A DNA stretch of 50,433 nucleotides. It comes from an uncultured Oscillospiraceae bacterium. Its GTDB lineage: Bacteria > Bacillota > Clostridia > Oscillospirales > Oscillospiraceae. The first letter of the stretch is position 1, and each line of letters begins with the position of its first letter. The translations under genes and the position numbers were made by a program. Shown here one piece after another: positions 30,035-48,854 of this stretch. A model generated the notes under the pieces. It saw nothing but the letters and a program-made list of their open reading frames with translations. It was not told the origin of the DNA and did not search any database. The stretch is from assembly GCA_944385175.1 (NCBI GenBank), contig CALWWB010000001.1, positions 1 to 50,433 of the forward strand, written 5' to 3'.

Positions 30035-31896
30035 TGTTCCAACTCCTCCCACTTTTCATAGAGCTCCAGAAGCTGGCTTTCCAGTTCCTCTTTCTGAGTG
30101 CCTATTTCCATGAGCTTCTGGTAATCGGTGGCATATTCTTCCGAGAGCTTATCCAGCTCTGAAGATTTTTCCTCCAGGCGCTGTATCTCCCGCTCCAGCC
30201 GGGCAATGGCCTTATCGTTATTCTTTTGCCGCTGGGGCTTGGGCTTCTTCTCCCGCTCCTGGCGTTTTTCCGTCTGGGAGAATATCTCCTGGCGGCTTTT
30301 CCACTGACGGTATTCCCCATAGCTGCCCCGGAAATCTGTGATCTGCCCGTCGGAGAGGGCCCAAATGCGAGTGGCAAATTTTTCGATGAAGTACCGGTCA
30401 TGGGAGACAAAGAGCAGGGTCTGCTCATAGTCGGCCAGGGCATCCTCCATCCATTCCCGGCTGGCGATATCCAGGTGGTTTGTGGGCTCGTCCAGGATTA
30501 GAAAGTTGATATCCCCGCCCATGAGCATGCACAGACGCAGGCGGCTTTTCTCTCCGCCGGACAGTGCCCCTACGGGAGTGAACACATCCTCTCTCCTGAA
30601 GCCGAAGGCCGCCAGGCGGTCACGGGCCTCCTGGGGCTGACAGCGGCAATCGTAAAGCATGGTGTCAAGGGCCGAACGGTCGTCCCGGGAGAAGCTGACC
30701 ATCTGGGGCAGATATGCCGTACGCACGGCGGGACCCTTATAGAGATAGCCGGTGTCCGGTGTCTCCTCGCCCATGATGAGCTTTACCAGAGTGGATTTGC
30801 CGGTCCCGTTGTCTCCGATGAGAGCGATAAGCTCCCCGCCGGCCACCTCCATGGAAAGACCGGAGAACAATAGCCTGTCCCCAAAACCTTTTGAGATATC
30901 GTCCAGCACCAGCACCTCATCGCCGCTGAACTGCCGCTCCTTGAATTTAACGCTGAGCTTCTTCTGCTCCGTGGGCTTTTCGCTGCTTTTAAGCTTCTCT
31001 ATGCGCTTTTCCATGGAGAAAGCCCTCTTGTGGAGCTTGTCGTTGCCCATGAAAGCCCAGAGGTGCATCTGCTCTGCCGCCCGGGTGAGTTGCTCTATTT
31101 TGGCCTGATCCTTCTCGTACTTCTTCAGCTTCTCCTCAAAGCGGCGCTGCCGCTCCTGAACATAAAAGCTGTAGTTGCCGCTGTAGAATTCCGCCTTTCC
31201 ATCGCTTATCTCTATGCTGCGCTGCACCACTTTGTCCAGAAAAAACCGGTCGTGGCTTATCACCAGAACGGTGCCCTTGAAGCGGAGCAGATAGTCCTCC
31301 AGCCACTCGGTAGAACGCAGGTCCAGATGGTTGGTGGGCTCGTCCAGCAGCAGGATGTCCGTGTCCTCCAGGATGAGACGGGCCAGGTTCACCCGGGTTC
31401 TCTCACCGCCGGAGAGGGACTCGAAGCTCTGAGACAGCATGGCTGGGGAGATATCCAGGCCGTTGGCCACCCGGGCCCTGTCCGTGTCCATATCGTAGCC
31501 GCCCAGACGGCGGAAGTCCTCCTGGAGCCGGTCATACTCCGTCAGCAGGGCGCGTGACTGTTCCTTTTCCAGCAGCAGGCTCACTTCGTCCATGCGCCGG
31601 GCAATATCATAGAGGTGGCGGTGGGCGTGCTTGAGAACCTGCTCCGTGGTCCAGCCTTCCGGGTACACCGGTATCTGGGACACCAGGCCCAGGCGCTTGG
31701 AAGGGGCGATCATCACCTCCCCCTCGTCGGGGCACAGCTGGCCGGAGAGGATGCGGAAAAGGGTGGTCTTGCCGCAGCCGTTGTGGCCCAGGATGCCCAC
31801 ACGCTCCCCGGAGTTGACGGTGAAGGAGAGGCCGTCCAATATGTTTTTCCCCAGCTCAAAGGATTTGACCAGGGCATTTACCGAAATGTCTATCAT
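30031..31896 (-). CDS. ABC-F family ATPase (two ABC domains, no TM, Uup-like C-terminal coiled coil)
   Basis: Two Walker A motifs (GHNGCGKTT, GDNGTGKST), two LSGGE signatures, and a Lys/Glu-rich C-terminal helix. Confidence 0.95.
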   Translation of the reverse strand: MIDISVNALVKSFELGKNILDGLSFTVNSGERVGILGHNGCGKTTLFRILSGQLCPDEGEVMIAPSKRLGLVSQIPVYPEGWTTEQVLKHAHRHLYDIARRMDEVSLLLEKEQSRALLTEYDRLQEDFRRLGGYDMDTDRARVANGLDISPAMLSQSFESLSGGERTRVNLARLILEDTDILLLDEPTNHLDLRSTEWLEDYLLRFKGTVLVISHDRFFLDKVVQRSIEISDGKAEFYSGNYSFYVQERQRRFEEKLKKYEKDQAKIEQLTRAAEQMHLWAFMGNDKLHKRAFSMEKRIEKLKSSEKPTEQKKLSVKFKERQFSGDEVLVLDDISKGFGDRLLFSGLSMEVAGGELIALIGDNGTGKSTLVKLIMGEETPDTGYLYKGPAVRTAYLPQMVSFSRDDRSALDTMLYDCRCQPQEARDRLAAFGFRREDVFTPVGALSGGEKSRLRLCMLMGGDINFLILDEPTNHLDIASREWMEDALADYEQTLLFVSHDRYFIEKFATRIWALSDGQITDFRGSYGEYRQWKSRQEIFSQTEKRQEREKKPKPQRQKNNDKAIARLEREIQRLEEKSSELDKLSEEYATDYQKLMEIGTQKEELESQLLELYEKWEELEQ

Positions 31897-33218
31897 TGCT
31901 TATCTACCTTTATGTTTTCTACTGCCCATTGCAGCACGTTGTTGGCGATGGGGCCGGAGGTGCTGAGCCCATAGCCGCCCCGTTCCACCAGGGTTACAAA
32001 GGCAAAAGGATGTTCATCGTCGGCCAGGAAGCCCACGAACCAGGCATGGGAGGTGCCGTCTCCCAGCTCGGCGGTGCCGGTTTTGGCGCAGAGCTTAAGA
32101 CCCGGGAAGTTCTCCTCCCCGTTGTAGTGGTCCACCACGTTGTAGTTCATCATCTGTTTGAGCCTGCCGGCGGTGGAGGCTTCCATATACCGGATGCTCT
32201 CCGCCTCGGTGTCGTCCAGAATCAAGCTGGGCTCTATCAGCTCCCCGCCGTTAGCTACGGCGCAGAGGAAGCGCAGCATGGCATAGGGACAGACCATGTC
32301 TGTGGACTGGCCTATGCCGGACCAGCCCAGCTCCGGGTCGCCTACAAAATCTGTGGGATAGCTGCCGGCGGCGGTGTTTATGCCGTTGAGCTCATGACTG
32401 TCCAGAAAACCGTAGTTTGTCACATAGTCCACCATAGTGTCCTGGCCCAGCATCACCGCTATCTGGGCAAAGGCCACGTTGCAGGAGTTGGAGAGGGCCT
32501 GTTCAAAGGTCTGGGTGTAATGGGAGCCGGTGCAGATTATAGGTACTCCGGCTATCTCGTATTCACCTTCGCAGTAGAATTCCATATCATTGATACCCTC
32601 TATCTGCTCCAGGGCAGCGGCGGCGGTGATGAGCTTGAAGATGGAGCCCGGTGTGAAGCTGGCGGAGAGGCAGCGGTTTATATAGGTGCCGTCCTTAAGC
32701 TCTGCCTCGGTGTCCAGAGGGTCCGTAGATGGCACGGATACCAGGCCCAGAATCTCCCCCGTCTTATAGTTTGAGAGGAGCATCAGGCCCTTGGTATCCT
32801 CACCCAGGGCCATGAGCTGGTCGTAGATGTATTCGTTGAGCTTTGAGTCTATACTCAGGGTGAGGACGCTGTCCTCGGTCTTGGTCATGCCGGTAAATAT
32901 GGAAAAGTCCTGCATGCCGCTCCAGTAGCGGGAGAGCACGCCGGCTCCCGTGCGGCCCCAGTAGTCCCCGGTGACGTGGTAATTGGCAGTCCTCACATGG
33001 GCATCCAGGGAAAATTCCTCCCTGGACTGGCCGAAGGAGGCCAGCATCTGCCCGTTCCTGTCCAGCAGCAGGCCGCTGGAGCCGGAGTTCACCCGGGAGA
33101 AGTACAAGGCCCAGTCCTGGCCCCGGTCCACATATTCCAGCAGATAGAAGCCCATTCCGCAGATCACCAGAGCCGCTATCAGCAGCAGGGAGAAAGAGCG
33201 GTTAGTTATCTTCCTCAT
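31893..33218 (-). CDS. Class B penicillin-binding protein (PBP2-type transpeptidase)
   Basis: SxxK (TPGSIFK), SxN (SNS) and KTGT motifs, with an N-terminal TM. The stop overlaps the ABC-F start (ATGA). Confidence 0.92.
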   Translation of the reverse strand: MRKITNRSFSLLLIAALVICGMGFYLLEYVDRGQDWALYFSRVNSGSSGLLLDRNGQMLASFGQSREEFSLDAHVRTANYHVTGDYWGRTGAGVLSRYWSGMQDFSIFTGMTKTEDSVLTLSIDSKLNEYIYDQLMALGEDTKGLMLLSNYKTGEILGLVSVPSTDPLDTEAELKDGTYINRCLSASFTPGSIFKLITAAAALEQIEGINDMEFYCEGEYEIAGVPIICTGSHYTQTFEQALSNSCNVAFAQIAVMLGQDTMVDYVTNYGFLDSHELNGINTAAGSYPTDFVGDPELGWSGIGQSTDMVCPYAMLRFLCAVANGGELIEPSLILDDTEAESIRYMEASTAGRLKQMMNYNVVDHYNGEENFPGLKLCAKTGTAELGDGTSHAWFVGFLADDEHPFAFVTLVERGGYGLSTSGPIANNVLQWAVENIKVDKQ

Positions 33219-34989
33219 ACTCGTCCTCCTGCCATGATTCTATAAAGGGATTGCCCTCGGCAATGTTCACGTATTCATCCGCATCCTCTTCCATATCCTC
33301 ATCCTCTTCCCCTCCCAGCTTCCTGGCGGAGCGGACGGCAAAGCTGGCATCCCGCCGGTTGTCGGCGCTTTTTATAAAGGCCATGAGCAGCCAGCATGAG
33401 ATGAGGGAGCTGCCGCCCCGGGATACAAAAGGGAAAGTGACGCCGGTGAAGGGCAGCAGATCCAGAGAGCCGAAAACGTTCAGGGACATCTGGCTGAGCA
33501 GCAGGGCCATGGCGGCGCAGGCGGCTATTGGGTAATAGGCGGAGCGTCCGTGCCTGGCGGAGCGGACGGCAAAAAAGGCCATGACCAGCACGGCAGCCAC
33601 CATGCACAGGCCCACGATAAGGCCCAGTTCTTCACAGATTACGGCAAAGACCATATCCGTGTTGGCGGCAAATATATCGTCCAGCCAGCCGAAGCCGGCC
33701 CCCTTGCCGGTGAGCCCTCCTGAGGCGGCGGCGGACATGGCCCGGGTCTGCTGGAAACCCGCCCCATAGACATCCTCCCAGGCATGGCCCCAGGTGGCGA
33801 AGCGCTGGGCAATGTAGGGCTTTACGGTGACAGCCAGAAAGCCTGCCAGACCCGCCGCGGACACCGCCAGAAACACCGTGCCCAGGCTGCCGGAGCGCAT
33901 ATAGGATATTATAAGAAACGTGATAAAAAAGATGAGGGCCGTGCCGAAGTCCCCGATCAGGGCCAAGGCAACAACGCACAGGGCGGAAAAGCCGATGAAA
34001 CCGTAGAGGTTCCGGCGGAAAAAGAGCCGCTCCAGAGTGGAGGAACCCACATAGATGTAACAGGCCTTTACTATCTCCGAAGGCTGGAAGGAATAGCCTC
34101 CGAATTCCAGCCAGTTTTTGGCGCCCATTACTGCATCGCTGGCCACTACGTTCACTGCCAGAAGGGCAAGGGCCAGTCCGGCAACAGGGATGCGAAAAGC
34201 CATGGTGCGCCGGAGATTGCGCAGCCACCAGCCGCCAAAGAGGAACAGGGCCACAGCGGCAATGGTCAGCAGCATCTGCCTGTACATGTCCTCAGGCGTG
34301 GAGGAGGCCGCCACACTCATGCCAAGGCTGGTGAGGTAGAAGGCCAGAGTTTCCACTTCAAAACCGCTGCGGTTCATAAGCCTCATGGCGCTGTAGCAGC
34401 ACCACTGGAGGGCAATAAGGGCCACAAAGGCCAGGGCTATGGAGCGGATGTGCTCCGTATCGGCAGACAGGACGTGCTGCAAAAGCAGAGCCAGCTGGAA
34501 CAGGCTGAGCTCCAGCAGAGTGACGGTGGGGGACACATGGAGCCCGGCGCTGGTACGTACTGCCTCGTTCTGTTCCATATCCCCGGCAGTGAGATCCCGG
34601 AATTTAAGGGTCAGGCCGCCCAGATTTATCACGTCCCCGGTGTCTACCGGGGCGCCGCTGCCCCCAACTTTGACGCCGTTTACCCAGACGCCGCTGCGGG
34701 AATAGATGTCGTATATCTTCCATATGCCCCTGTCGTTTCTGGACAGCACTGCATGGCAGCGGCTGACACCGGGATAGCAAAGGCGTATATCGGAGCTGAG
34801 GGAGCGGCCGATTAGATTTTCCCAGTGGGTAAGCGTATAATTTTCTCCCTCGCAGCTGAGATGCCCCCAGATCTCCGACTCATATTTTTCGCTGAGCATG
34901 GAGCGCAGGCAGCGGGCCAGGATGAGTATGGACAGTATGATGACCGCAAATTTGGATGTAGTCAGCACATATTCCAGAAAGACCTCCAT
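33202..34989 (-). CDS. FHA-domain-fused SEDS protein (FtsW/RodA/SpoVE family)
   Basis: The N-terminal FHA-like segment reads NLIGRSLSSDIRLCYPGVSRCHAVL...VWVNGVKV. A 10-TM SEDS core follows, with FQPSEIVK and LPFTGVTFPFVSRGGSS. ATG 34989 comes after GAGAGGAGG. There is a 17-nt overlap with the PBP2 start. Confidence 0.9.
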   Translation of the reverse strand: MEVFLEYVLTTSKFAVIILSILILARCLRSMLSEKYESEIWGHLSCEGENYTLTHWENLIGRSLSSDIRLCYPGVSRCHAVLSRNDRGIWKIYDIYSRSGVWVNGVKVGGSGAPVDTGDVINLGGLTLKFRDLTAGDMEQNEAVRTSAGLHVSPTVTLLELSLFQLALLLQHVLSADTEHIRSIALAFVALIALQWCCYSAMRLMNRSGFEVETLAFYLTSLGMSVAASSTPEDMYRQMLLTIAAVALFLFGGWWLRNLRRTMAFRIPVAGLALALLAVNVVASDAVMGAKNWLEFGGYSFQPSEIVKACYIYVGSSTLERLFFRRNLYGFIGFSALCVVALALIGDFGTALIFFITFLIISYMRSGSLGTVFLAVSAAGLAGFLAVTVKPYIAQRFATWGHAWEDVYGAGFQQTRAMSAAASGGLTGKGAGFGWLDDIFAANTDMVFAVICEELGLIVGLCMVAAVLVMAFFAVRSARHGRSAYYPIAACAAMALLLSQMSLNVFGSLDLLPFTGVTFPFVSRGGSSLISCWLLMAFIKSADNRRDASFAVRSARKLGGEEDEDMEEDADEYVNIAEGNPFIESWQEDEYEEDN

Positions 34990-35088
34990 AGCCTGCCTCC
35001 TCTCCCTCAAATCGGATTTCCTTATAATATAACATAGGTTTCACCGAAAAGCCAGAAAATATATGTTAAAGCTACGGGCGTATGGTGA

Positions 35089-36101: not shown

Positions 36102-36926
36102 ATGAGCCAGTGCAACCACGATTGTTCATCCTGCAGTGAAAACTGCTCGGAGAGAAGCCCGGAGAGCTTCCGCAAAGAGTTGAACCCCCAGTCTAGCGTG
36201 AAAAAGGTAATTGCCGTAGTCAGCGGCAAGGGCGGCGTGGGCAAGTCCCTGGTCACCAGCCTTATGGCTTCGGAGCTGCAGCGCAGGGGATATAACTGCG
36301 CCATACTGGATGCAGACATCACAGGTCCCTCTATCCCCAAATCCTTCGGCATCCATCAGCATGCCACCGCTACCGACGAGTATATTATACCTGTACGCAC
36401 CCACACGGGTATGCAGATAATGTCCATAAATCTCATCCTGGAGGATGAGACATCCCCAGTAGTCTGGCGCGGCCCTGTGATAGCCGGAGCCGTCACCCAG
36501 TTCTGGACCGACGTGGTATGGCAGGATGTGGACTATATGTTTGTGGACATGCCTCCCGGAACAGGAGATGTACCTCTCACCGTGTTCCAGTCCCTGCCTG
36601 TAGACGGAATCGTCATCGTCACGTCCCCCCAGGATCTGGTGAGCATGATAGTCACCAAGGCCGTGAACATGGCGGATATGATGAATGTCCCAGTGCTGGG
36701 CATAGTTGAAAACATGTCTTATTTCAAGTGCCCCGACTGCGGCAAAGAGCACGCCATATTTGGAGAGAGTAAGGTGGAGAAGATCGCCGCAGAGCATGGC
36801 ATAGAGCATATTGCCCGGCTGCCCATAGACCCGGTTATCGCTACCATGGTGGATGCAGGCGAGGTGGAGTCCGTCAGCGGTGAGTATATAGCCCCCATTG
36901 CAGACTATATCGAAAAGGAGATTTAA
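36102..36926 (+). CDS. Mrp/NBP35 (ApbC-type) P-loop ATPase, Fe-S cluster carrier
   Basis: Deviant Walker A SGKGGVGKS, the CPDC motif in ENMSYFKCPDCGKEH, and an N-terminal Cys cluster CNHDCSSCSENC. Confidence 0.93.
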   Translation: MSQCNHDCSSCSENCSERSPESFRKELNPQSSVKKVIAVVSGKGGVGKSLVTSLMASELQRRGYNCAILDADITGPSIPKSFGIHQHATATDEYIIPVRTHTGMQIMSINLILEDETSPVVWRGPVIAGAVTQFWTDVVWQDVDYMFVDMPPGTGDVPLTVFQSLPVDGIVIVTSPQDLVSMIVTKAVNMADMMNVPVLGIVENMSYFKCPDCGKEHAIFGESKVEKIAAEHGIEHIARLPIDPVIATMVDAGEVESVSGEYIAPIADYIEKEI

Positions 36927-36931
36927 ACACT

Positions 36932-37375
36932 ATGCGTATAGCCGTTACCTACAAGGACGGAGAGATATTCGAGCACTTCGGCCACTGTGAGTGCTTTGCC
37001 GTATACGAATACGGCGATGATGTGGATGACTGCAAAAAAACCTTGATTGACTGCTCCGACCGCCACGGCCACCAGGCCATGGCCGACCTGATGAAGGAGC
37101 AGAATGTGGACGCAGTTATCTGCGGCAACCTGGGCGGTGAAGCCCGGGCTCTGCTGCTCAGCTACGGCATAGTGCCCGTGGCGGGCTACTGTGGCCATGC
37201 GGACACTGCCGCAGATATGCTTATCACCGGCCGTCTGCCCATAATCGACGGGGCCGGCGCCTGCGGCGGGGGCTGCGGGGGCTGCGGAGGCGGCTGCCAT
37301 AGCGGAGATGAGGGCGGCTCCTGCGGCTGCGGAGGCGGCTGCCATGACGACGAGGGCGGCTGCTGCTGCCACTGA
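36932..37375 (+). CDS. NifB/NifX-family (dinitrogenase FeMo-cofactor-binding fold) protein with Cys/Gly/His-rich C-terminal tail
   Basis: MRIAVTYKDGEIFEHFGHCECFAVYE...AVICGNLGGEA is the NifX-like fold. The last ~41 residues are GAGACGGGCGGCGGGCHSGDEGGSCGCGGGCHDDEGGCCCH. Confidence 0.85.
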   Translation: MRIAVTYKDGEIFEHFGHCECFAVYEYGDDVDDCKKTLIDCSDRHGHQAMADLMKEQNVDAVICGNLGGEARALLLSYGIVPVAGYCGHADTAADMLITGRLPIIDGAGACGGGCGGCGGGCHSGDEGGSCGCGGGCHDDEGGCCCH

Positions 37376-38817: not shown

Positions 38818-38856
38818 TCCATTTACTTTCCGGCTGATGAACCGATATAGGGTATT

Positions 38857-38890
38857 AAAAAATGAAGCGCCAGCCGGCGCTTCATTTTTT
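38857..38890. terminator. Bidirectional intrinsic terminator (MATE / convergent histidine kinase)
   Basis: AAAAAATGAAGCGCC / GGCGCTTCATTTTTT. Confidence 0.75.
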
Positions 38891-38895
38891 GATGT

Positions 38896-40242
38896 TCAGT
38901 TTTCTGAGACTGAACTTTCGATGTTGGCAGGGATGCTCAGCTCTGCGGCAAAATGTTCTCCATCATTGTGAACCTCAAAGCTGCCGTGCATCTGCTCCAT
39001 TATCCGCAGACAGGTGCGCAGGCCGATTTTTGTACTTTCCACCCTGGCCAGATCCCGGGTTATGCCGTTGGATATGCACAGGCTCAGCCTGCCGTTTTTA
39101 AGCTCGCTTATCATAGTGACCCGCTGGCCCTTGTCACCATATTTCATCACGTTGGAGACAAGGTTGTCCGTAACCCGCTTGAGATACAGCGGGTCGGCCA
39201 TGACGCTGCACTCTCCGGAAAATTCTATGCGCTGTACTTTGAAGCCGTCTTCGGTGAGAGTGAATTCTGCCTCGCTGGTCAGCTGCTCCAGCAGCAGCCG
39301 CCCGTCATAGTTCTCCATATCCAGCTTCAGCTCTGCGCTGCCATATACCAGGAAGTACTTGAACAGCTCGTCTGTCAGTGACTTCAGATCCATTGCCTTG
39401 CTGTAAGCCGAGCGGCTGAACTGGCGGCAGCGCTCAGTATCGGAAAAATCACTCTCACACAGCAGGCCCAGATAGCCTATCATGGAGGTCATGGGTGTGC
39501 GTATGTCGTGGGAGATAGCGGTTATCAGCTCATTGTTGGCCTGCCAGGCCCGACTCTCGCTGCTCATCTGCTCGATCACCGACTGGCGCATCTCATCCAT
39601 GGCTCTGGCGAGGCTGCCGAGCTCATCCTGCCCGGGTGCGCTGATACTCATTTCAAGCCTGCCGGAGCTGACTGTGGTAGCTGCCCGGGACAGGTCTATT
39701 ATCCGTTTGGTGAGCTTATTCATATAAAACAGCAGAACAAGCACGATGCTGCCGCCGGCTGCGGCGATGGCAGTGATATCCGCCACCACATATTCCCTGG
39801 ACTGGGAACTGTCCACAATGGCCACCAGATACATACCGTCGGAGAATTTCAAGGGATAGAGACGGCCGTATTTGGAGAGATCATAGCTGCTGTTGCTCTC
39901 CGGCACTGCGGCTTTTTCTCCGGAGAAACGGCGGTGGAGGTTTCCGCTGTCATACAGGAGGATCGTTACATAATCATTTTCCCGGGCCCAGCGGGACATT
40001 GCCGCGGTGTCCTTGCCTGATATGCCGTTGTTATTCACATAGGTGCTGAGCCGGGAGTATATCTCCGCCTTGCGCTGAGCGATATTTTCTTCGCTCATAT
40101 ATACTTTTTCAACCAGAAGACAGCCGATTTCACCCACAAGCAGATACATGATGACCGCAACGACAATGCTTATCAGAGAGACGTACAGCATCTTGGCATT
40201 GAGAGAATAGGAAAATGAGAGCTTGTTAAGGTGCTTAATCAA
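38896..40242 (-). CDS. Sensor histidine kinase (2 TM with ~105-aa extracytoplasmic loop, HAMP, HisKA, HATPase_c)
   Basis: H-box LITAISHDIRTPMTSM, N-box LVSNVMKYG, HAMP-like RIIDLSRAATTVSSGRLE. Confidence 0.92.
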   Translation of the reverse strand: MIKHLNKLSFSYSLNAKMLYVSLISIVVAVIMYLLVGEIGCLLVEKVYMSEENIAQRKAEIYSRLSTYVNNNGISGKDTAAMSRWARENDYVTILLYDSGNLHRRFSGEKAAVPESNSSYDLSKYGRLYPLKFSDGMYLVAIVDSSQSREYVVADITAIAAAGGSIVLVLLFYMNKLTKRIIDLSRAATTVSSGRLEMSISAPGQDELGSLARAMDEMRQSVIEQMSSESRAWQANNELITAISHDIRTPMTSMIGYLGLLCESDFSDTERCRQFSRSAYSKAMDLKSLTDELFKYFLVYGSAELKLDMENYDGRLLLEQLTSEAEFTLTEDGFKVQRIEFSGECSVMADPLYLKRVTDNLVSNVMKYGDKGQRVTMISELKNGRLSLCISNGITRDLARVESTKIGLRTCLRIMEQMHGSFEVHNDGEHFAAELSIPANIESSVSEN

Positions 40243-40924
40243 TCTGATATCCCTTTCCCCACACGGTACGAATTATTTTTGGACTGGACGGCTTCTCCTC
40301 TATTTTCCGACGCAGATTCAGCACATGGACCATCACCGTATTTCCGGAACCGGAGAGGAACTTTTCGCCCCACACGGCCTCATATAGCTCCGCCGTTGTA
40401 ACGGTGTGCCCACGCCGCTTCAGCAGATGCTCCAGAATGGCGTATTCGGTATCCGTCAGGGACACGTGGCTGCCCTGACATTTTACGCTGTGGGCGGAGA
40501 AGTCCACCTCCAAGTCCCCTACGGAGACGGCGGCCTCGTTCTTGCCCCGGTACTCCCTATAGCGGCGCAGCAGAGAATTGACTTTAGCCAGCAGCTCCTG
40601 ATGGGAGAAGGGCTTGGAGAGAAAATCATCCCCGCCGCTGCCGTAGGCTGAGAGCCTGTCCGCCTCGGCAGACTTGGCGGTTAAAAACAGTATGGGGGCG
40701 TGGCTCAGTTCCCTGAGGCGGCTGCAGGTCTCAAAGCCTGAGAGCCCCGGCATCATAACATCCAGGATTATCAGATCCGTCTCCGGATGGACGGAAAGAT
40801 ACTCGATGGCAGAATTGCCGTCAGAGGCTTCCGCAACAAAATATTTATTTTTAAGCAAAATTTCAAGAACATTTCTTATGTCTGCATCGTCATCTACTAT
40901 AAGGATATGGGGCAGTGTACTCAT
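40235..40924 (-). CDS. OmpR/PhoB-family response regulator
   Basis: The start is ATG 40924 (GAGGTG 5 nt upstream), not the track start 41047. ILIVDDD...ILDVMMPG...TAKS is followed by VMVHVLNLRRKIE...VWGKGYQ. There is an 8-nt overlap with the kinase gene. Confidence 0.93.
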   Translation of the reverse strand: MSTLPHILIVDDDADIRNVLEILLKNKYFVAEASDGNSAIEYLSVHPETDLIILDVMMPGLSGFETCSRLRELSHAPILFLTAKSAEADRLSAYGSGGDDFLSKPFSHQELLAKVNSLLRRYREYRGKNEAAVSVGDLEVDFSAHSVKCQGSHVSLTDTEYAILEHLLKRRGHTVTTAELYEAVWGEKFLSGSGNTVMVHVLNLRRKIEEKPSSPKIIRTVWGKGYQID

Positions 40925-40985
40925 ATGATCACCTCGACATGATTGTAACACAAATTTTCCAGGGCACAACAAGCTTTTGCCCGGT

Positions 40986-41074
40986 TTAAGAAAGATTAAG
41001 AGTTGGGCCGGATTAATTGTGATATAATCATGCCGTCCTGTCGGCATCTTAAGAAAACAGGAAAATTCTTAAGA
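40986..41074. promoter_or_regulatory. Four TTAAGA boxes (candidate response-regulator sites) in the divergent control region
   Basis: TTAAGA occurs at 40986 and 40996 (10-bp spacing) and at 41049 and 41069 (20-bp spacing). The boxes flank a TGaTATAAT element. Confidence 0.3.
41020..41028 (+). promoter_or_regulatory. Extended -10 promoter element facing the lipoprotein gene
   Basis: TGATATAAT. No good -35 is present, consistent with an activator-dependent or extended -10 promoter. Confidence 0.4.
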
Positions 41075-41123
41075 GGACGGAGAAGCTGCTTGCAAATTAA
41101 TTCACATATCAAGGAGGACAACA

Positions 41124-43559
41124 ATGAATCTGAAAGTAAGAAGAATCCTGGCCCTGCTTTTAACGGCAGTAATGGTTCTTGGCCTTGCCGCCTGCGGCAA
41201 GAGCGGAGACAGTTCGGGCGACAAGAAAACCGAAGAGGACACTGCCACTCCTGAATTCGCCTATGTAGCGGAGTACAAAAGCCTGACAAAAGATCAGGAC
41301 AGTTCCATGACTCCCAGAGTATACACTGAGGACGGCTTTTACTCCACCAGCTGGGAAAAGATAGGTGATAACACCCCGGAGGGAGTGACTCCCGAGTACG
41401 AGGGACAGTATGATGTTTACGGTACCGAGCTCTATTTTGTCAGTTTTGACGGCAAGGTGGAGAAGCTGGAGAACTATGAGCGCATGGAGATACCGGAGAA
41501 CACCGAGGGCCTGAAGGACTTCAGTGCCAGCAGCGATGTATCCGGCCTGAATATGGCGGAGGACGGCAGCCTGGTAGTGATAGAAAGCCAGTACAAGTCC
41601 TGGAGCGAGGCCCCTGACGGCATGAGCAGCAGCGACAATGAATACTGGAATTATTATAAGTATGAGCAGAACTACTTTATCCGCTGGCTGGATAAGGACG
41701 GCACCGAGAAGAGCAGAGCTCAGATCCAGATGGATCAGGACCTGTATCTGGACACCTATCGTATGCAGCTGGATGAGAAGGGCAATGCGCTCTGCCTGTG
41801 CAACGGTAACCAGATCTGGGCTATCGCCCCTGACGGCTCCATCAGCTATACCATAGAAACCGAAAACTATTTTGATGCCCTGGTGAAGCTGGCCGACGGC
41901 CGGGTGGCCGTGGGCGTGAGCGGTGAAAACGGCATGGAGATCGCCGTGATTGATTCTGAGGCCAAAAAGCTCAGCGAAGAGACTTATCCCATTAAGGCCA
42001 GCATTTACAATGCCTATACCGGCGGCGGAGACTATGATCTGTATTACACCAACGGAACCAATTTTTACGGCTATAAGCTGGGGGATGAGGAGCCGGTAAA
42101 GCTCTTCAACTGGCTGAGCTGTGATGTAAACAGCAACGATCTGTACAGCGTTTATGTACAGCCCGACGGCACAATCATCTCCGTGGTATCTGACTACAAC
42201 AGCAGCACCGGCAAAATTAGCACGGAGTTAGTTACCGTTAACAAGGTGCCCTATGAGTCTGTGCCCCACAAGGAGATAATCACCCTGGGCTGCCTGTATC
42301 TCCAGTATCAGACCCAGGAGATGATAGTGAAATTCAACCGCAGCAACGACAAATACCGCATCGAAGTCACCGATTATTCTGAGTACAATAATGAAGAGAA
42401 CGGCTATGACGCCGGCCTCACCAAGCTCAACACCGAGATAATGGCGGGCAATGTCCCCGATATTCTGGACATCGGCAACCTGAACTATGTGCAGCTGGCC
42501 TCCAAGGGCATCATTGAGGACCTGTACCCCTACCTGGAAGCCGACGGAGAGCTGAGCAAGGACGACTATTTTGAGAACGTCCTGGGCGCCATGGAAGTGG
42601 ACGGCAAGCTCTGCGCCACCGTGCCCGGTTTCTATATCAACGCCGTTATGGGCGCCAGCAAGGTAGTGGGCGATACTCCGGGCTGGACCTACGATGAGTT
42701 CAACGAGGCTCTGGCCTCCATGCCCGAGGGCTGCGAGCCCTTTGACCAGTACGTCACTCGGGACACCATACTCCAGAACTGCCTTGCTCTGGATATGGAG
42801 AACTTTGTGGACTGGGGCACCGGCGAATGCAAGTTCGACAGCCAGGAGTTCATCGACCTGCTGGAATTTGCCGCCCGCTTCCCCGAGACCTTCGACTGGG
42901 AAAATTATGACTATTCCACCTCCGAGACCACTCAGGAGCGTATAGCCCAGGGCAAGCAGATGCTGGTACAGACCTCCGTATATATGATAGAGGACCTGTT
43001 CTATAACCAGTATATCGAAACCTTCGGCGGTGACGTCACATTTATCGGCTACCCCACCTCCAGCGGCACGGGCAACATGCTGGGCATTGACGGCGGCGGC
43101 TACGCCATGAGCAGCAAGAGCGAGCACAAGGATGCGGTTTGGCAGTTCCTGCGCACCTTTATGACCAAGGAGTACCAGGATGAGAACGTATGGGGTCTGG
43201 CCAGCCGTAAGGATATCTTTGACGAAAAGGCAGAGGAGGCCATGACCATCCAGTACCAGGAGGATGCCAACGGCAATGCAATCCTGGACGAAGAGGGCAA
43301 CAAGATCCCCATCGCCCGCTACGGACGCTGGAACGAGGAGACCGGAGAGACCGAAGAGGTCTATGCCATAGAGCCAGAGCAGATCGACCAGCTGCGGGAG
43401 CTCATTGCCAGCACCGACAAAAAGGCCAACTACGACAGCGACATTTTCAAGATAGTCTCCGAAGAGGCAGCAGCCTTCTTCCAGGGCCAGAAGACTGCCG
43501 AGGATGTGGCAAAGCTCATCCAGAGCAAGGCCAATATCTTCGTCAACGAGCAGCGTTGA
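41124..43559 (+). CDS. 811-aa lipoprotein: unknown N-terminal domain (~370 aa) fused to a family-1 extracellular solute-binding domain
   Basis: Strong RBS AAGGAGG. Lipobox LGLAAC. The C-terminal half has SBP features (ITLGCLY...MIVKFN...IMAGNVPDILDIG...). The N-terminal half has repeated (D/E)G(S/T/K/R)-turn segments. Confidence 0.88.
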   Translation: MNLKVRRILALLLTAVMVLGLAACGKSGDSSGDKKTEEDTATPEFAYVAEYKSLTKDQDSSMTPRVYTEDGFYSTSWEKIGDNTPEGVTPEYEGQYDVYGTELYFVSFDGKVEKLENYERMEIPENTEGLKDFSASSDVSGLNMAEDGSLVVIESQYKSWSEAPDGMSSSDNEYWNYYKYEQNYFIRWLDKDGTEKSRAQIQMDQDLYLDTYRMQLDEKGNALCLCNGNQIWAIAPDGSISYTIETENYFDALVKLADGRVAVGVSGENGMEIAVIDSEAKKLSEETYPIKASIYNAYTGGGDYDLYYTNGTNFYGYKLGDEEPVKLFNWLSCDVNSNDLYSVYVQPDGTIISVVSDYNSSTGKISTELVTVNKVPYESVPHKEIITLGCLYLQYQTQEMIVKFNRSNDKYRIEVTDYSEYNNEENGYDAGLTKLNTEIMAGNVPDILDIGNLNYVQLASKGIIEDLYPYLEADGELSKDDYFENVLGAMEVDGKLCATVPGFYINAVMGASKVVGDTPGWTYDEFNEALASMPEGCEPFDQYVTRDTILQNCLALDMENFVDWGTGECKFDSQEFIDLLEFAARFPETFDWENYDYSTSETTQERIAQGKQMLVQTSVYMIEDLFYNQYIETFGGDVTFIGYPTSSGTGNMLGIDGGGYAMSSKSEHKDAVWQFLRTFMTKEYQDENVWGLASRKDIFDEKAEEAMTIQYQEDANGNAILDEEGNKIPIARYGRWNEETGETEEVYAIEPEQIDQLRELIASTDKKANYDSDIFKIVSEEAAAFFQGQKTAEDVAKLIQSKANIFVNEQR

Positions 43560-43597
43560 TAAATTCAAATACTTCCAGATAAAAAAGCCTAGGAGAG

Positions 43598-43795
43598 TTT
43601 TTCGCCCCGGCGAAAAAATAAATTCAATTGTTTTCCGCGGCGGCATGTACGTCGCGGAAAACACTCCGCCCGGAGTGGAGTGCGGAATTGTACGCCTTTG
43701 GCGTACACTCGAGGTATGAAGCGAAATGCAAGCTCTCTCGTCGAAGAAGGATATGCCTTCTTCGACGAGCTGAGGCAAAGGCACAGCCTTTGCCT
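43598..43795 (+). other. Array of six consecutive stem-loops in the SBP-permease spacer
   Basis: Stems lie at 43598-43617, 43630-43662 (10 bp), 43662-43677, 43690-43706 (7 bp), 43737-43769 (14 bp) and 43773-43795 (10 bp). None has a classical U tract. Confidence 0.6.
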
Positions 43796-43839
43796 GGAAG
43801 TATGAATTATTAATTTTTGATTGAGATTGGCCGGATTTC

Positions 43840-43868
43840 TTGAACCGGCTTACAAGATGTGGTATGAT
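43840..43868 (+). promoter_or_regulatory. Candidate internal sigma-A promoter for the permease-adaptor genes
   Basis: TTGAAC, 17 nt, (TGG)TATGAT, about 55 nt upstream of ATG 43923. Confidence 0.45.
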
Positions 43869-43922
43869 TAGCAGCGATGTACATATCATAACAACAATTG
43901 TAAAAAGAAACGGCATAGTCAA

Positions 43923-44810
43923 ATGAAGAGACATAAACTTAATCTCAGGGAGCGGACTTTGGACTTGCTCAAGAGTCTGTGCTTCCTTTCACCCAGCCTG
44001 CTGGGTGTGGGCGTGTTCTTCATCGTTCCTTTCGGCGTGGTAGTGTACTACTCGCTTATAGACGGGGTTGGATCGAAGAACTTTGTGTTTTTGGAAAATT
44101 TCATAAAGCTGTTCGATAACTCCGCTTTCCTCATGGCGGCAAAGAATACTCTCAGCTTCTCAGTGGTGGCTGTGCCTCTGGCAGTGATCCTGGCCATGGT
44201 TCTGGCTCTTATGCTGGAGTGCCGCATACCCATGAAGAGCCAGTTCCGCACCTTTTTCCTCAGCCCTATGATGGTGCCTGTGGCCTCGGTGGTACTTATC
44301 TGGCAGGTGCTGTTTAACTTCAACGGCACAATAAATGAATTTCTCATGACCTTCGGTATCGACAAGATAGATTGGCTTCAGTCGGATTACTGCCAGATAG
44401 TGGTCATAATCCTTTTCCTGTGGAAGAACCTGGGCTACAACATGATACTATTCATGGCGGGGCTTGCCAATATCCCCAAGGAGCTGCTGGAGGTGGCGGA
44501 TGTGGAAGGCGCCAGCGAGACCTATAAATTTTTTGCCATCAAGCTGCGCTACCTGTCGCCCACTGTGCTCTTTGTCACCATATTGTCCCTGATAAACTCT
44601 TTCAAGGTTTTCCGTGAGGTGTATTTGCTCACCGGGGATTACCCCTATGAAAAGCTGTATATGCTCCAGCATTTCATGAACAACACCTTCCGTTCCCTTG
44701 ACTATCAGAAGCTCTCCGCTGCGGCAGTGGTAATGGCCATTGTCATGGTTGTCCTGATAGCCCTGCTGTTCATTGCGGAAGACTGGTTCGGAAAGGATGT
44801 GGAGGGATGA
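43923..44810 (+). CDS. Carbohydrate-type ABC importer permease (MalF/CUT1-like)
   Basis: 295 aa, 6 TM helices. EAA loop: LLEVADVEGASETYKFFAIKLRYLSP. Confidence 0.93.
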   Translation: MKRHKLNLRERTLDLLKSLCFLSPSLLGVGVFFIVPFGVVVYYSLIDGVGSKNFVFLENFIKLFDNSAFLMAAKNTLSFSVVAVPLAVILAMVLALMLECRIPMKSQFRTFFLSPMMVPVASVVLIWQVLFNFNGTINEFLMTFGIDKIDWLQSDYCQIVVIILFLWKNLGYNMILFMAGLANIPKELLEVADVEGASETYKFFAIKLRYLSPTVLFVTILSLINSFKVFREVYLLTGDYPYEKLYMLQHFMNNTFRSLDYQKLSAAAVVMAIVMVVLIALLFIAEDWFGKDVEG

Positions 44811-45682
44811 AAAAGAAGCATTATTTCGGCCGTGGCGCCATGTTCCTTATATGTGCGGCCTTTGCCATCATGTTCCTGCTTCCAACGGTACTGACCATCA
44901 CAAACTCCTTCATGTCCGAGTCGGAGATAAAAGCCAACTACGGCATGATATTTTCCACCACCACCGGCGGATATGTGTCCAAAACCGTAAATCTCAAATT
45001 TATTCCAGACAAGGTCACTCTCTCCCAATATGTGACGGGGCTGATAAAATCCCCGGAATACCTGCTGAAGCTGTGGAACAGCATTTTCCTGGTGGTGCCC
45101 ATAGTCATTTTCCAGGTGGCGGTGGCCGCCGTGGCGGCCTACAGCTTTACCCGCTGGAGAGGCAAGATCAGAAGCGGCATTTTCTTCTTCTACGTAATTT
45201 TGATGCTGATGCCATATCAGGTAACCCTGGTGCCAAACTACCTGGTGAGTGATTGGCTGGGCATACTGAATACCTCCTGGGCAATTATCCTGCCGGGCAT
45301 CTTCGCACCCTTCTCCGTGTTCCTGCTCACCAAGTTTATGCGCCGCATACCCTATTCCCTTATTGAGGCGGCCAAGGTGGACGGGGCGGGGGAGTGGCAG
45401 ATATTTACAAAGATATGTCTGCCTCAGTGCCGCTCGGCCCTGTATTCCATTGCTATCCTGGTGTTCATTGATTACTGGAACATGGTGGAGCAGCCTCTGA
45501 TCCTCCTGCAGGATGCGGACAGCCAGCCCCTTTCGGTGTTCCTGTCCAACATTAATACCGGCGAGATAGGCTTGGCCTTTGCCATGGCCACAGTTTATAT
45601 GATACCGTCCCTGCTGCTGTTCCTCCACGGAGAGGAATACCTGGTAGAGGGCATAGCCAATTCCGGCAGCGTCAAGGGCTGA
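44807..45682 (+). CDS. Carbohydrate-type ABC importer permease (MalG/CUT1-like)
   Basis: 291 aa. EAA loop: LIEAAKVDGAGEWQIFTKICLP. ATGA overlap with the preceding gene. Confidence 0.93.
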   Translation: MKKKHYFGRGAMFLICAAFAIMFLLPTVLTITNSFMSESEIKANYGMIFSTTTGGYVSKTVNLKFIPDKVTLSQYVTGLIKSPEYLLKLWNSIFLVVPIVIFQVAVAAVAAYSFTRWRGKIRSGIFFFYVILMLMPYQVTLVPNYLVSDWLGILNTSWAIILPGIFAPFSVFLLTKFMRRIPYSLIEAAKVDGAGEWQIFTKICLPQCRSALYSIAILVFIDYWNMVEQPLILLQDADSQPLSVFLSNINTGEIGLAFAMATVYMIPSLLLFLHGEEYLVEGIANSGSVKG

Positions 45683-45714
45683 CGGAGACAGCCAGAGCTT
45701 TTTAGAGGTGTATT

Positions 45715-47520
45715 ATGGAATTTAAACCGAAGAACAGAGATTGGGTAAAAAATGCCGCCATAATCTTCCTGGCGGTGCTGTTGGTGCTGACTTTCTTCTC
45801 CAACACCATAATGAACCGCAGCCTGCCGGAGGTGGCCACTGCCGGAGTTACCGACGGTTCCATTGTTGCCAAAGTCCGGGGTACCGGCACGGTCAAGGCC
45901 AACGGCAGCCATGACGTGAAGACCACCCAGACCCGGGAGATACGCTCCGTCATGGTGAAGGTAGGCCAGGAGGTAAAGACCGGGGACACCCTGTTTGTCC
46001 TGGGGGCAGGAGACAGCCAGGAGCTGGAGGCTGCCAAGGAGACTCTCAGAGATCTTCAGTATGCCTACCAGAAATCCGCCGTGAGTATGCCCAGCTTCAA
46101 TAACACCACGGAGCTGCGGGCGGTGGAGACGGCCAGCAAAGCCCTTGACGAAGCGGACAAGGCCTACAGTGACGCCTTAACTACCTACAATATAATGAAG
46201 GACGAGCTGTCTGACAAAGACACTCTGGACAAGCTCAGCGATGCGGAAGATGCCATGACCAAGGCATATAACACTCTGATATCCGTCCAAGCCAGTTATG
46301 ATCAGGAGTATCAGAGACTCTCTGCCGAAGTAGTGGCCTGGCAGGAGAGGGTAAACCAGCTCACTGAGATTCCGGAGCCCACTCCTACCCCGCCGCCTGA
46401 AGAAGTGACCACTACGCCGGGACAGGATGGGGATAAGAAGGAAAACGGCGATACCCAGGGGCAGGGGGCTGAAGTCCTGTCTGCATCGGGAAGCTATACC
46501 GGGTATATAAATCTGGGGGCTGTGCAGACATATGGTTCCTTAAAGCCCGAGGATGTAAACGATCTGGCTACGGCCAAGGCTTGGCTTGCCTCAGCCCAGG
46601 CAGCCCTGGCAGACTTCGTTGCATCAAATAAAACTACCCTGGAGAATGCCCAGTCCGTATATGATTCTGCCAAAGCCAAGTATGACGCTCTGCTTAAATA
46701 TAACGAGCAGGTGAATTACCAGCTGGTGCCCTATAAGGAGGCTCTGGACAAGGCCGAGGCGGAGATGAAAACTGCCGAGGCAGCCTATGAGGATGCCTGC
46801 AACAATTTGTATTTCACTCAGTCTCAAAACGACAAGACCCTGGCTTCCGCCTCCATAGATCTGCAGCAGCAGGCCGAGAAGATAAAGGCGGCCCAGGAAA
46901 AGGTAAAGCAGCTCTCCGGCGATGCCGGTGATGAGATCACCGCCAATGTGAACGGTGTCGTCACCGCAATAAATGTAAGCGCCGGGGACACCGTAACCAA
47001 GGATACCATAATATGTACCATAGAGGTACCGGATATGGGCCACACCCTGTCCTTCTCCGTCACCAACGACCAGGCACAGCGCCTGCGGGTGGGGGATACG
47101 GCCACCGTCAGCAATTACTACTGGGGCAATGAGATCGTCGCCACTCTGTCCAATATCCGTACCGACCCCAAGAACCCCCAGACCAATAAGGAGCTTACCT
47201 TTGAGCTGGCCGGGGATGTGACCTCCGGCTCCGAGCTGACCATATCCGTGGGCCAGAAGAGCGCAAACTACGACACTATCGTGCCCAACAGCGCCATACG
47301 CAGCGACAGCAACGGAAAGTTTGTCCTGGCGATTGAGGCCAAGTCCTCGCCTCTGGGCAACCGCTATATTGCAAAGCGTGTGAGCGTGGAGGTGCTGGCC
47401 TCAGATGACAACAATTCCGCAGTGGTGGCGGATCTCAGCTATGGAGACTATGTCATCACTACCAGCAATTCTCCTGTAAAGAGCGGTGACCAGGTGAGGA
47501 TGGCGGAGAACAACCCATGA
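45715..47520 (+). CDS. HlyD-type membrane-fusion (periplasmic adaptor) protein, unusually long (601 aa)
   Basis: N-terminal TM. Split lipoyl-like motif (VMVKVGQEVKTGDTLFVL ... VNGVVTAINVSAGDTVTKDTIICTIE). A long Ala/Lys/Glu coiled coil is interrupted by a Pro/Thr-rich linker. C-terminal beta-barrel segments are present. Confidence 0.88.
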   Translation: MEFKPKNRDWVKNAAIIFLAVLLVLTFFSNTIMNRSLPEVATAGVTDGSIVAKVRGTGTVKANGSHDVKTTQTREIRSVMVKVGQEVKTGDTLFVLGAGDSQELEAAKETLRDLQYAYQKSAVSMPSFNNTTELRAVETASKALDEADKAYSDALTTYNIMKDELSDKDTLDKLSDAEDAMTKAYNTLISVQASYDQEYQRLSAEVVAWQERVNQLTEIPEPTPTPPPEEVTTTPGQDGDKKENGDTQGQGAEVLSASGSYTGYINLGAVQTYGSLKPEDVNDLATAKAWLASAQAALADFVASNKTTLENAQSVYDSAKAKYDALLKYNEQVNYQLVPYKEALDKAEAEMKTAEAAYEDACNNLYFTQSQNDKTLASASIDLQQQAEKIKAAQEKVKQLSGDAGDEITANVNGVVTAINVSAGDTVTKDTIICTIEVPDMGHTLSFSVTNDQAQRLRVGDTATVSNYYWGNEIVATLSNIRTDPKNPQTNKELTFELAGDVTSGSELTISVGQKSANYDTIVPNSAIRSDSNGKFVLAIEAKSSPLGNRYIAKRVSVEVLASDDNNSAVVADLSYGDYVITTSNSPVKSGDQVRMAENNP

Positions 47521-48779
47521 GAGAGAAGCTGAAGCGCCTGGCGCTGCCTCTTGCGGCGGCGGTGCTGGCTCTGCTGTGTCTTGTATGCCTGATAATATAT
47601 TCTGCCCTGGCCGGTTCCCTGGACAGCCAGCATCAGGCGGAGCGGTGGCAGGGGGATGGCCAGCTGGAATTCAGCCAGCTGAGCTGCTTCATGTCAGTAG
47701 ACCAGAAGCTCACACTGGACCAGGTATACAGTTTCCGCAAGACAATGATGGACAAGTTCCATGAAGCGGCCCTGGATATTGATAACGATGCCCAGCTTTT
47801 CTGCGATGCCTGGTCAACGACGGGTAAAGCCTATGTTGCCAGCGAGCAGGGCAAAGGGGATGTGAGCGTTATTGCCGTGGGCGGCAACTTCTTCGATTTT
47901 CACCCTATCCGCCTGCTCAGCGGTAATTACATCAGCCCCGACGACCTGATGAAAGACAGGGTACTGCTGGATGAGGAGACTGCATGGCTCCTTTTTGGCG
48001 GCACACAGTTGGAGGGACTGAGCTTCAAGATAGACGGAGTGCCCTTTGTGGTGGCCGGTGTCATTGAGCGGGAACAGGATTTTGCCAGCCTGAAAGCATA
48101 TACCTCCGGCATGGGCATATATATGAGCTATGACGCCTACCTCTCTATTAAGGGCGGAAGCGGCACAACTGCTGCTGCAAGCTCCACAGGTTCCTCCCAA
48201 GGCAACGGCAGTTCCTCCGGCGGTTCTACCGGAGGCAGTTCCTCGGGGAACTCCGGCAGCACCGGCGGAAGTTCAGGCAGTACCGGCGGGAGCTCAGGGA
48301 GCGGCGTTGGTATAGAGTGCTACGAGGTGGTCATGGCCGAGCCTGTAAAGGGATTTGCTCTGAATGTTGCAAAGGAGAAGTTTCCCATAGGCGGCGGTGT
48401 CATAGTGGAAAACTCCACCCGTTATGGCTATGAGAATATATTGAATCTGGTAAAGCAGTTCGGTTCCCGTTCCATGCAGACTCACGGCGTGATTCTGCCC
48501 TACTGGGAAAATGCAGCCAGATGCATTGAAGACTGGTGCCTTGCGCTGCTGCTGGCGGCTATGATAACCGCCGTGCTGCCGCTTGTGCTGATTGTCATTT
48601 ACCTGGTGCGTATCTTCCGCCGGGGCAAGGGCAAGCTGGAGGATGACCTGCTGCCCAAGGCCAAGGAGCGCCTGGGTGAGGCTATAAGAGTCCGTCAGCG
48701 CAGAGCCTGGGAAAGAAGATACGGCAAGAAGAACAAAAAAGAGGACAGCCCTGTCCAGACCGGCGGGGAATCAAACTGA
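47517..48779 (+). CDS. Two-TM protein carrying a MacB-periplasmic-core-like ectodomain but no FtsX helical bundle
   Basis: ATGA overlap with the adaptor gene. After TM1 come NFFDFHPIRLLSGNYISPDD...VLLDEETAWLLFG...FKIDGVPFVVAGVIE (MacB_PCD-like by eye) and a Ser/Gly linker. A single further TM and a basic tail complete the protein. Confidence 0.8.
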   Translation: MREKLKRLALPLAAAVLALLCLVCLIIYSALAGSLDSQHQAERWQGDGQLEFSQLSCFMSVDQKLTLDQVYSFRKTMMDKFHEAALDIDNDAQLFCDAWSTTGKAYVASEQGKGDVSVIAVGGNFFDFHPIRLLSGNYISPDDLMKDRVLLDEETAWLLFGGTQLEGLSFKIDGVPFVVAGVIEREQDFASLKAYTSGMGIYMSYDAYLSIKGGSGTTAAASSTGSSQGNGSSSGGSTGGSSSGNSGSTGGSSGSTGGSSGSGVGIECYEVVMAEPVKGFALNVAKEKFPIGGGVIVENSTRYGYENILNLVKQFGSRSMQTHGVILPYWENAARCIEDWCLALLLAAMITAVLPLVLIVIYLVRIFRRGKGKLEDDLLPKAKERLGEAIRVRQRRAWERRYGKKNKKEDSPVQTGGESN

Positions 48780-48798: not shown

Positions 48799-48834
48799 CA
48801 GGCCGACGGCAAATCCGTCGGCCTGTTGCTTTTG
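48799..48834. terminator. Bidirectional intrinsic terminator
   Basis: 11-bp stem CAGGCCGACGG/CCGTCGGCCTG. TTGCTTTT follows on the plus strand and a T tract follows on the minus strand. Confidence 0.65.
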
Positions 48835-48854
48835 ACTATATAAATATTTGCAGC

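Follow-up and report, generated by a model that had tools for sequence, protein, structure and literature searches.

A locus of seven genes at positions 38896-48779 of a 50,433-nucleotide (nt) stretch of contig CALWWB010000001.1 (assembly GCA_944385175.1, an uncultured Oscillospiraceae bacterium), a stretch referred to in its entirety as the window, encodes importer-type permeases and a binding lipoprotein together with a membrane-fusion protein and a MacB-ectodomain protein. The seven genes form a conserved unit and are not a chance juxtaposition, and they probably specify one composite MalFGK2-type ATP-binding cassette (ABC) transporter that has two accessory subunits of its own, both extracytoplasmic, and a binding protein controlled by a two-component system (TCS). 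The minus strand carries the genes for a sensor histidine kinase (HK, 448 amino acids (aa), 38896-40242) and an OmpR/VanR-family response regulator (RR, 229 aa, 40235-40924), the start of the latter being backed by relatives among which the length is kept. The plus strand carries the genes for a lipoprotein with a solute-binding protein (SBP) domain (811 aa, 41124-43559), a MalF/UgpA-like permease (295 aa, 43923-44810), a MalG/UgpE-like permease (291 aa, 44807-45682), a membrane-fusion protein (MFP) of the HlyD/MacA type (601 aa, 45715-47520) and a protein in which a MacB-type ectodomain lies between two transmembrane (TM) helices, TM1 and TM2 (the PCD protein, 420 aa, 47517-48779). ATGA overlaps join the two permease genes at 44807 and the MFP and PCD genes at 47517, while a gap of 32 nt (45683-45714) precedes the MFP gene and a spacer of 363 nt (43560-43922) separates the lipoprotein and MalF-like genes. 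Comparison with the list of open reading frames (ORFs) placed the genes, overlaps, gap and spacer exactly where an earlier reading of the letters alone (the sequence-only reading) had put them, and its family assignments held for all seven genes with Pfam and NCBIfam, complemented by hydropathy for the HK, MFP and PCD proteins and by structure models (AlphaFold) for the lipoprotein and PCD protein.

Related loci were collected in two sets totaling ∼175 loci, one seeded with the PCD protein (95 loci fetched) and the other with the MalG-like permease; the query of the permease-seeded scan was limited to the MalG-like subfamily defined by the motifs FID[YN]WNM and [IF]TNSFM[SN]E. The MFP gene was located 5' of the PCD gene in 82 of 82 PCD-seeded loci, accompanied by the MalG-like gene in 75/75, the MalF-like gene in 72/72, a lipoprotein gene in 55/62 and a regulator gene in 30/57. 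Conversely, in the permease-seeded loci the MFP gene followed the MalG-like gene in 76 of 77 and was itself followed by the PCD gene in 66 of 71. The sequence-only reading had proposed that the combination is a genuine unit; with the 420-aa protein as query the SBP, permease, permease, MFP and PCD genes were indeed found to co-occur, and the structural genes were syntenic in every sufficiently long related locus. The permease-seeded scan matched more than 571 species genomes, the hosts including Oscillospiraceae, Geosporobacter ferrireducens, Ruminiclostridium cellobioparum, Lutispora thermophila, many Paenibacillus, Desulfotomaculia, Desulfocucumis and Ca. Formimonas. The closest relatives are metagenome-assembled genomes (MAGs) of uncultured gut Oscillospiraceae and Ca. 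Limivicinus. No prior account of importer permeases joined to an MFP and a PCD protein was found in the literature searched and, as far as could be found, the arrangement is apparently undescribed.

The products of the locus differ greatly in conservation. Median identity to the window proteins in the PCD-seeded loci was 88% for the MalG-like permease, 83% for the MalF-like permease and 71% for the RR, and fell to 52% for the HK, 49% for the MFP, 44% for the PCD protein and 42% for the lipoprotein. The surface-exposed parts evolve fast and the membrane core is almost frozen. The surface-exposed proteins also contain low-complexity inserts, either Pro/Thr-rich or Ser/Gly-rich, that vary in length, and in many loci of both scans two tandem SBP paralogues accompany a single permease pair. 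Two copies of the system were present in the MAG E06__bin180 (L003 and L021) and in Paenibacillus doosanensis CAU 1055 (L126 and L153), the latter an isolate in which the two copies indicate true paralogy. In four Paenibacillus loci (L143, L145, L153 and L172) and in L138 the order was permease-permease-MFP, the PCD gene was not detected, and an SBP gene came next in three. Large proteins with no Pfam match are encoded 5' of the permeases in L030 (735-4814, 1359 aa) and L033 (4163-6184, 673 aa), where an SBP gene is not adjacent.

The core of the system resembles that of CUT1 importers such as MalEFGK2 and UgpBAEC in having two EAA-loop permeases of the BPD_transp_1 family and an SBP_bac_1 lipoprotein. 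The BPD_transp_1 domain was detected in the MalF- and MalG-like proteins with E values of 9e-16 and 2e-16, and the top NCBIfam matches were UgpA/MalF and UgpE/MalG, all far under the curated cut-offs. Both window permeases retain the EAA coupling loop, at residue 190 of the MalF-like protein and, in canonical form, at residue 187 of the MalG-like protein, which also bears the subfamily motif FIDYWNMVEQPL. The sequence-only reading had described the locus as one with no ATPase. This stands for the window, in which no transporter ATPase is encoded; the sole ABC ATPase (30031-31896) belongs to the ABC-F proteins and was rejected as partner. It does not stand for the system, since sister clades carry a MalK/UgpC-type gene and the missing ATPase is specific to the lineage of the window. 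An ATPase gene directly follows the PCD gene, mostly with a gap of 0-4 nt, in several loci of the long class described below and in a deep Oscillospiraceae clade with PCD proteins 34-40% identical to that of the window. The six in-operon ATPases examined were all of the UgpC/MalK type, with ABC_tran and OB_MalK domains in six of six and TOBE_2 in five of six, as is the case for CUT1 importers; the four that were scored against NCBIfam reached 466-480 bits, the cut-off being 432. Since these ATPases are of the UgpC/MalK type and the EAA loops are retained, the energizing module is of the importer type. An ATPase gene ∼4 kb 3' of the locus in L002, L006 and L007 was also considered and rejected, as it encodes MetN, which has a NIL domain and belongs to a methionine importer, MetNIQ.

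An operon devoid of ATPase, as in the lineage of the window, is a feature shared with many Gram-positive CUT1 systems that draw on MsmX or MsmK. Clostridial CUT1 operons of this kind use an orphan ATPase, Clo1313_2554 in the case of Clostridium thermocellum (PMC9601137). The suggestion of the sequence-only reading that the ATPase is shared in the CUT1 manner is strengthened by the MalK/UgpC type of all in-operon ATPases examined in relatives and, by analogy, the window system would use a shared orphan ATPase encoded elsewhere in the genome.

The two accessory proteins are constant features that set the system apart from CUT1 importers, the MFP as an invariable companion and the PCD protein in nearly all loci. 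The MFP contains the Pfam domains HlyD_3, Biotin_lipoyl_2 and HlyD_D23 and scored 91.0 bits against TIGR01730, slightly below the cut-off of 94.9. Hydropathy revealed a single N-terminal TM helix as anchor, a Pro/Thr-rich insert is present at approximately residues 214-262 inside the central region, and weak matches to MacA and MexJ were obtained in the PDB. Bacillota are typically monoderm. No exporter or outer-membrane-factor gene was seen in the operon, and the invariant neighbors of the MFP are the importer-type permeases. The PCD protein has MacB_PCD as its sole Pfam domain (33.6 bits, cut-off 27) and two TM helices according to both hydropathy and the AlphaFold model. Foldseek matched the model to MacB, Spr0695, YknZ, LolC/E and HrtB with values of 2e-9, for MacB, to 1e-4. 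A Ser/Gly-rich insert occupies residues 215-265, and the sequence YPYWENAAR before TM2 and a basic cytoplasmic tail are conserved. The fold, the adjacent and translationally coupled MFP with its N-terminal anchor, and the occurrence in monoderms are shared with MacAB, Spr0693-0695 and YknWXYZ, which are type VII ABC systems with an MFP. In contrast to MacB-type proteins, the PCD protein of the window has only two TM helices and no Pfam match to the FtsX four-helix domain, and its partner membrane proteins are importer-type permeases.

The PCD-only family comprises 929 clusters at 50% identity. Since nearly all are 330-450 aa in length, truncation does not account for the two-helix form. The loci fall into two classes. 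In the short class, to which the window belongs, PCD proteins of ∼408 aa with two TM helices are paired with MFPs of 596 aa (median), and the hosts are Oscillospiraceae, Saccharofermentans, Mageeibacillus and Lachnospiraceae. In the long class, found in Paenibacillus, Desulfotomaculia, Geosporobacter, Ruminiclostridium and Lutispora, PCD proteins of ∼466 aa with at least four TM helices are paired with MFPs of 424 aa (median); relatives with 4-6 TM helices likewise gave no Pfam match to FtsX. An hhalign comparison indicated homology of the ectodomains between the classes (probability 99.3%), and the co-variation in size suggests that the PCD protein and MFP are physical partners. A gene for a PBP5-type DD-carboxypeptidase (Peptidase_S11) was located directly 5' of the MalF-like gene in L106, L118, L121 (4711-5763), L122, L123 and L132, six loci that are all of the long class.

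Each half of the locus looks like an intact piece of a known system, which raises the alternative of two independent modules that are co-transcribed, an ordinary SBP-permease importer and an MFP-PCD pair that acts by itself or in partnership with a MacB-type ABC protein from another locus. The Paenibacillus loci of the order permease-permease-MFP-SBP with no PCD gene detected would be accommodated by this explanation, as would the loci with no adjacent SBP gene. Independence is rather improbable, however, given the near-invariant adjacency over very distant Bacillota with genes that overlap or are tightly spaced. No recognizable MacB/LolD-type ATPase or FtsX gene was present in the ∼175 loci and, in the operons that include an ATPase gene 3' of the PCD gene, the MFP and PCD genes sit between the permease and ATPase genes. 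The permeases, moreover, form a subfamily of their own with signature motifs, in the company of the MFP in 76 of 77 loci.

The lipoprotein has a signal peptide and a lipobox (L21-A-A-C24) that is invariant in its homologues. Pfam assigned SBP_bac_1 only to residues 424-685 of the 811. The AlphaFold model (pLDDT 85) revealed an all-beta domain at approximately residues 45-376 and, C-terminal to it, an SBP fold of the CUT1 type at approximately 384-811; such an extra N-terminal beta domain of ∼330 aa, often present in the binding protein of this system, is a departure from CUT1 importers. A Foldseek search with the whole model returned matches to the SBP domain only, the N-terminal beta domain having none, and the relative L106 gave a sub-threshold hint of a Reg_prop propeller. 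The top match of the SBP domain was CbpC of C. thermocellum (5e-17 by sequence, 7.8e-18 by structure), and the structural matches also included CUT1 oligosaccharide SBPs.

CbpC, which lacks the N-terminal beta domain, is the binding protein of transporter C (Cthe_2125-2128 / Clo1313_2783-2786), the closest studied relative of the system. A knockout of this transporter grows normally (Yan et al. 2022, PMC9601137). The four-gene CbpC operon contains one gene named neither msd nor cbp, and the legend of the published gene map of C. thermocellum sugar-transporter clusters includes an 'acrA' gene (PMC9601137, PMC8303734). A CbpC-family SBP (P0395) was found in L098 within an SBP-SBP-permease-permease-MFP-PCD operon, and the order permease-permease-MFP(-SBP) of the PCD-less loci would match that deduced for the CbpC operon. 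We infer that transporter C belongs to the importer-plus-MFP architecture, with a presumptive MFP. Searches for the CbpC locus recovered only an Acetivibrio MAG and an A. straminisolvens fragment in the genome scan and a 1.4-kb contig in the protein search. In the Acetivibrio MAG (L096, 9794-11173) the homologue, 86% identical to CbpC, is an orphan SBP flanked by genes for a DUF4097 protein and a LuxR-type regulator, with no permease genes within 10 kb upstream.

The HK has two TM helices around an extracytoplasmic loop of ∼100 aa, followed by HAMP, HisKA and HATPase_c domains, the last marginally under the Pfam cut-off (24.6 versus 26.4 bits), and the RR has the domains Response_reg and Trans_reg_C. 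The domain architecture is that of VanRS and other OmpR-family systems, and the top NCBIfam matches were VanS (108 versus a cut-off of 400) and VanR (204 versus 350), both far short. In contrast to VanRS, no van resistance genes are present and the regulated target appears to be the binding-protein gene. By sequence, the proteins are assigned as an OmpR-family pair and not a Van system. Control by a TCS of this type also differs from the LacI- or AraC-type control usual for CUT1 importers. Clustering of neighbors identified HK and OmpR-type RR genes as the sole broadly recurrent ones (54 and 51 of ∼175 loci). The DD-carboxypeptidase neighbor and the VanRS-like TCS hint at a link of the system to the cell wall or peptidoglycan.

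A direct repeat, TTAAGAAAGATTAAGA (TTAAGA-N4-TTAAGA), is located at 40986-41001 on the plus strand upstream of the lipoprotein gene. The promoter of this gene has an extended -10 element (TGATATAAT, 41020-41028, plus strand) and no good -35 element, the position of which is occupied by the repeat. Replacement of the -35 element by a direct-repeat operator is characteristic of PhoB/OmpR-type activation. The repeat was present in 26 of 28 orthologous RR-lipoprotein intergenic regions, always 34 nt 5' of TGnTAnAAT, compared with 2 of the 54 spacers that precede the permease gene and with 0.5% of 200-nt windows taken at random; the window itself contains a single match, where 0.12 would be expected from chance. 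Its conservation and rarity make it the likely operator of the RR. Two extra TTAAGA copies 20 nt apart (41049-41074) are contained in a 27-nt insertion 3' of the -10 element that is unique to the window sequence. A second candidate element, GATTRAGA..TTGG(G)CCGGATT, common to both promoters of the window, was dropped because it is missing in relatives. The other promoter (TTGAAC-17-TGGTATGAT, that is TTGAAC-17-TATGAT with an upstream TG; 43840-43868, plus strand) is conserved within the 363-nt spacer, 3' of an AT-rich stretch; it is near consensus and predicted to drive the permease-MFP-PCD genes. Since the repeat is at the lipoprotein promoter and the spacer holds a promoter of its own, the TCS most probably acts as activator of the lipoprotein gene, with the permease-MFP-PCD genes expressed separately. 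Thus, the claim of the sequence-only reading that the sensor pair is dedicated to the locus gains a conserved operator in its favor, at the lipoprotein promoter only and not at the permease-MFP-PCD unit.

The recurrence of the TCS, alone among neighbors, and an operator that controls the lipoprotein gene could also be explained by a sensory complex in which the chief role of the transporter is to signal ligand flux or the state of the envelope to the HK in the manner of BceAB/BceS, transport being secondary. Such a function is given only a slight chance, the smallest among the explanations considered. Roughly half of the loci lack an adjacent TCS, the permease-MFP-PCD genes have a promoter distinct from that of the lipoprotein gene, and the ∼100-aa extracytoplasmic loop distinguishes the HK from the intramembrane-sensing kinases of the BceS type.

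For the composite transporter, the following mechanism is proposed. The two permeases and the lipoprotein binding protein would form a CUT1-type, MalFGK2-like core, with a MalK/UgpC-type ATPase presumably supplied from elsewhere in the genome as are the shared ATPases of the MsmX/MsmK type. The MFP and the two-helix MacB-ectodomain protein would come together on the outside of the permeases, forming a cage or conduit that extends into the cell wall, and the binding protein would deliver ligand for import. The OmpR-type TCS would activate the lipoprotein promoter via the TTAAGA-N4-TTAAGA site, and the permease-MFP-PCD genes would be read from their own sigma-70-type promoter. Import is the direction suggested by the fold, the SBP, the type of ATPase and the paralogy of the SBPs. 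A more specific version is a wall-spanning machine in which the MalFGK2 core is physically coupled to the MacB-ectodomain protein and a ring of the MFP, and which captures or extracts large or wall-associated ligands for import; this version is advanced tentatively, with somewhat less than an even chance of being correct.

The opposite direction of transport is unlikely although several results are compatible with it. In such an extractor or exporter, ATP-driven movements of MalFGK would be passed to the PCD ectodomain and MFP by mechanotransmission resembling that of MacB and LolCDE, the cargo would be, for example, an antimicrobial peptide, glycolipid or wall fragment from the outer leaflet or wall zone, and the lipoprotein would be an acceptor or sensor. 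The matches of the PCD fold to MacB, Spr0695, YknZ, LolC/E and HrtB, the VanRS-like TCS, the DD-carboxypeptidase genes of the six long-class loci and the lack of catabolic neighbors are in agreement with this function, as are the role of Firmicutes MFP-MacB modules in peptide resistance (PMC4887032) and the lack of both sugar binding by CbpC and a growth phenotype of the knockout (PMC9601137). However, the tandem and fast-diverging SBP paralogues have the appearance of specificity determinants for uptake, and the PCD protein of the short class has two TM helices only, for which contact with a nucleotide-binding domain cannot be shown. Furthermore, we know of no type I transporter of the MalFG fold with a binding protein and MalK-type ATPase that exports.

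Several points weigh against the composite importer. Contact of the MFP or PCD protein with the MalFG-like pair is only presumed, and all other known MFPs and MacB-type ectodomains are parts of exporters and extractors (PMC10094684, PMC8277102). An adjacent SBP gene is absent in 7 of 62 loci, and a TCS is adjacent in no more than about half. Plain sugar import is disfavored by the finding that CbpC binds none of the sugars tested, a loop blocking the pocket (Yan et al. 2022, PMC9601137). No glycoside hydrolase or catabolic gene emerged as a recurrent neighbor when those of the ∼175 loci were clustered, a further difference from CUT1 importers. The search for an ATPase covered the 50-kb window, and an orphan MalK-type gene elsewhere is only presumed. 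Finally, in one Bacillota MAG (L108, 5037-5753) a 238-aa ABC_tran ORF lies directly 5' of the MalF-like gene; it is short, scores poorly against the MalK-type profile and was left untyped. Leaving this ORF aside, the MFP and PCD genes of relatives were not found beside a recognizable MacB-type ATPase or FtsX gene, the arrangement that the sequence-only reading had named as contrary to its proposal.

Reviews assign MFPs and the MacB ectodomain to exporters or extractors and MalFG-type permeases to importers (PMC10094684, PMC8277102). An operon that joins the parts of both across several Bacillota orders points to an as yet unstudied way for ABC transporters to operate. If the wall-spanning machine is real, it would represent an unrecognized ABC class in monoderms, and the use of adaptors and the MacB ectodomain would extend beyond export. 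The architecture may also explain why transporter C of C. thermocellum resisted assignment as a sugar importer. The system is common in gut and rumen Oscillospiraceae, the surface biology of which is poorly known, and cultured carriers exist in Paenibacillus, R. cellobioparum, G. ferrireducens and L. thermophila.

The 363-nt spacer, which the sequence-only reading had described as structured, is strongly so (z = -9.7, six hairpins), and folding revealed an array of five perfect or near-perfect hairpins at 43598-43795 on the plus strand, 3' of the lipoprotein gene. Most of this structure proved to be a strain-specific insertion and not a conserved RNA. Approximately 200 of the 363 nt, with four tandem perfect or near-perfect hairpins (43560-43772), are missing in the closest relatives, and only the last hairpin of the array (43773-43795) is common to them. 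A conserved RNA element was rejected on this basis and for lack of a credible Rfam match, the sole match being a sub-threshold snoRNA inside the lipoprotein gene. The insertion may represent a short intergenic element of repetitive or mobile nature. In E. coli, the repetitive extragenic palindromic (REP) region between malE and malF is a hairpin array that follows the binding-protein gene and stabilizes its mRNA. The window likewise has its array 3' of the binding-protein gene, and by analogy the spacer most resembles arrays with such a stabilizing function.

Terminator-like hairpins were found at both ends of the locus, as the sequence-only reading had claimed. One with A-run and T-run arms (38852-38895, no strand assigned) lies between a MATE gene and the HK gene, and the other, 3' of the PCD gene (48799-48835), has an 11-bp stem with 9 G-C pairs and would function on both strands. 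The flanking genes, encoding the MATE protein, a PF03601 membrane protein and an FtsW/PBP pair, are unrelated to the locus. On the minus strand at 31893-35010, an FtsW/RodA-family gene with an FHA domain overlaps a gene for a penicillin-binding transpeptidase and is adjoined by the ABC-F gene. At 36102-37375, a gene for a P-loop NTPase of the Mrp/NUBPL type is followed by a Nitro_FeMo-Co (NifX/NifB-like) gene, the product of which ends in a Cys/Gly-rich tail.

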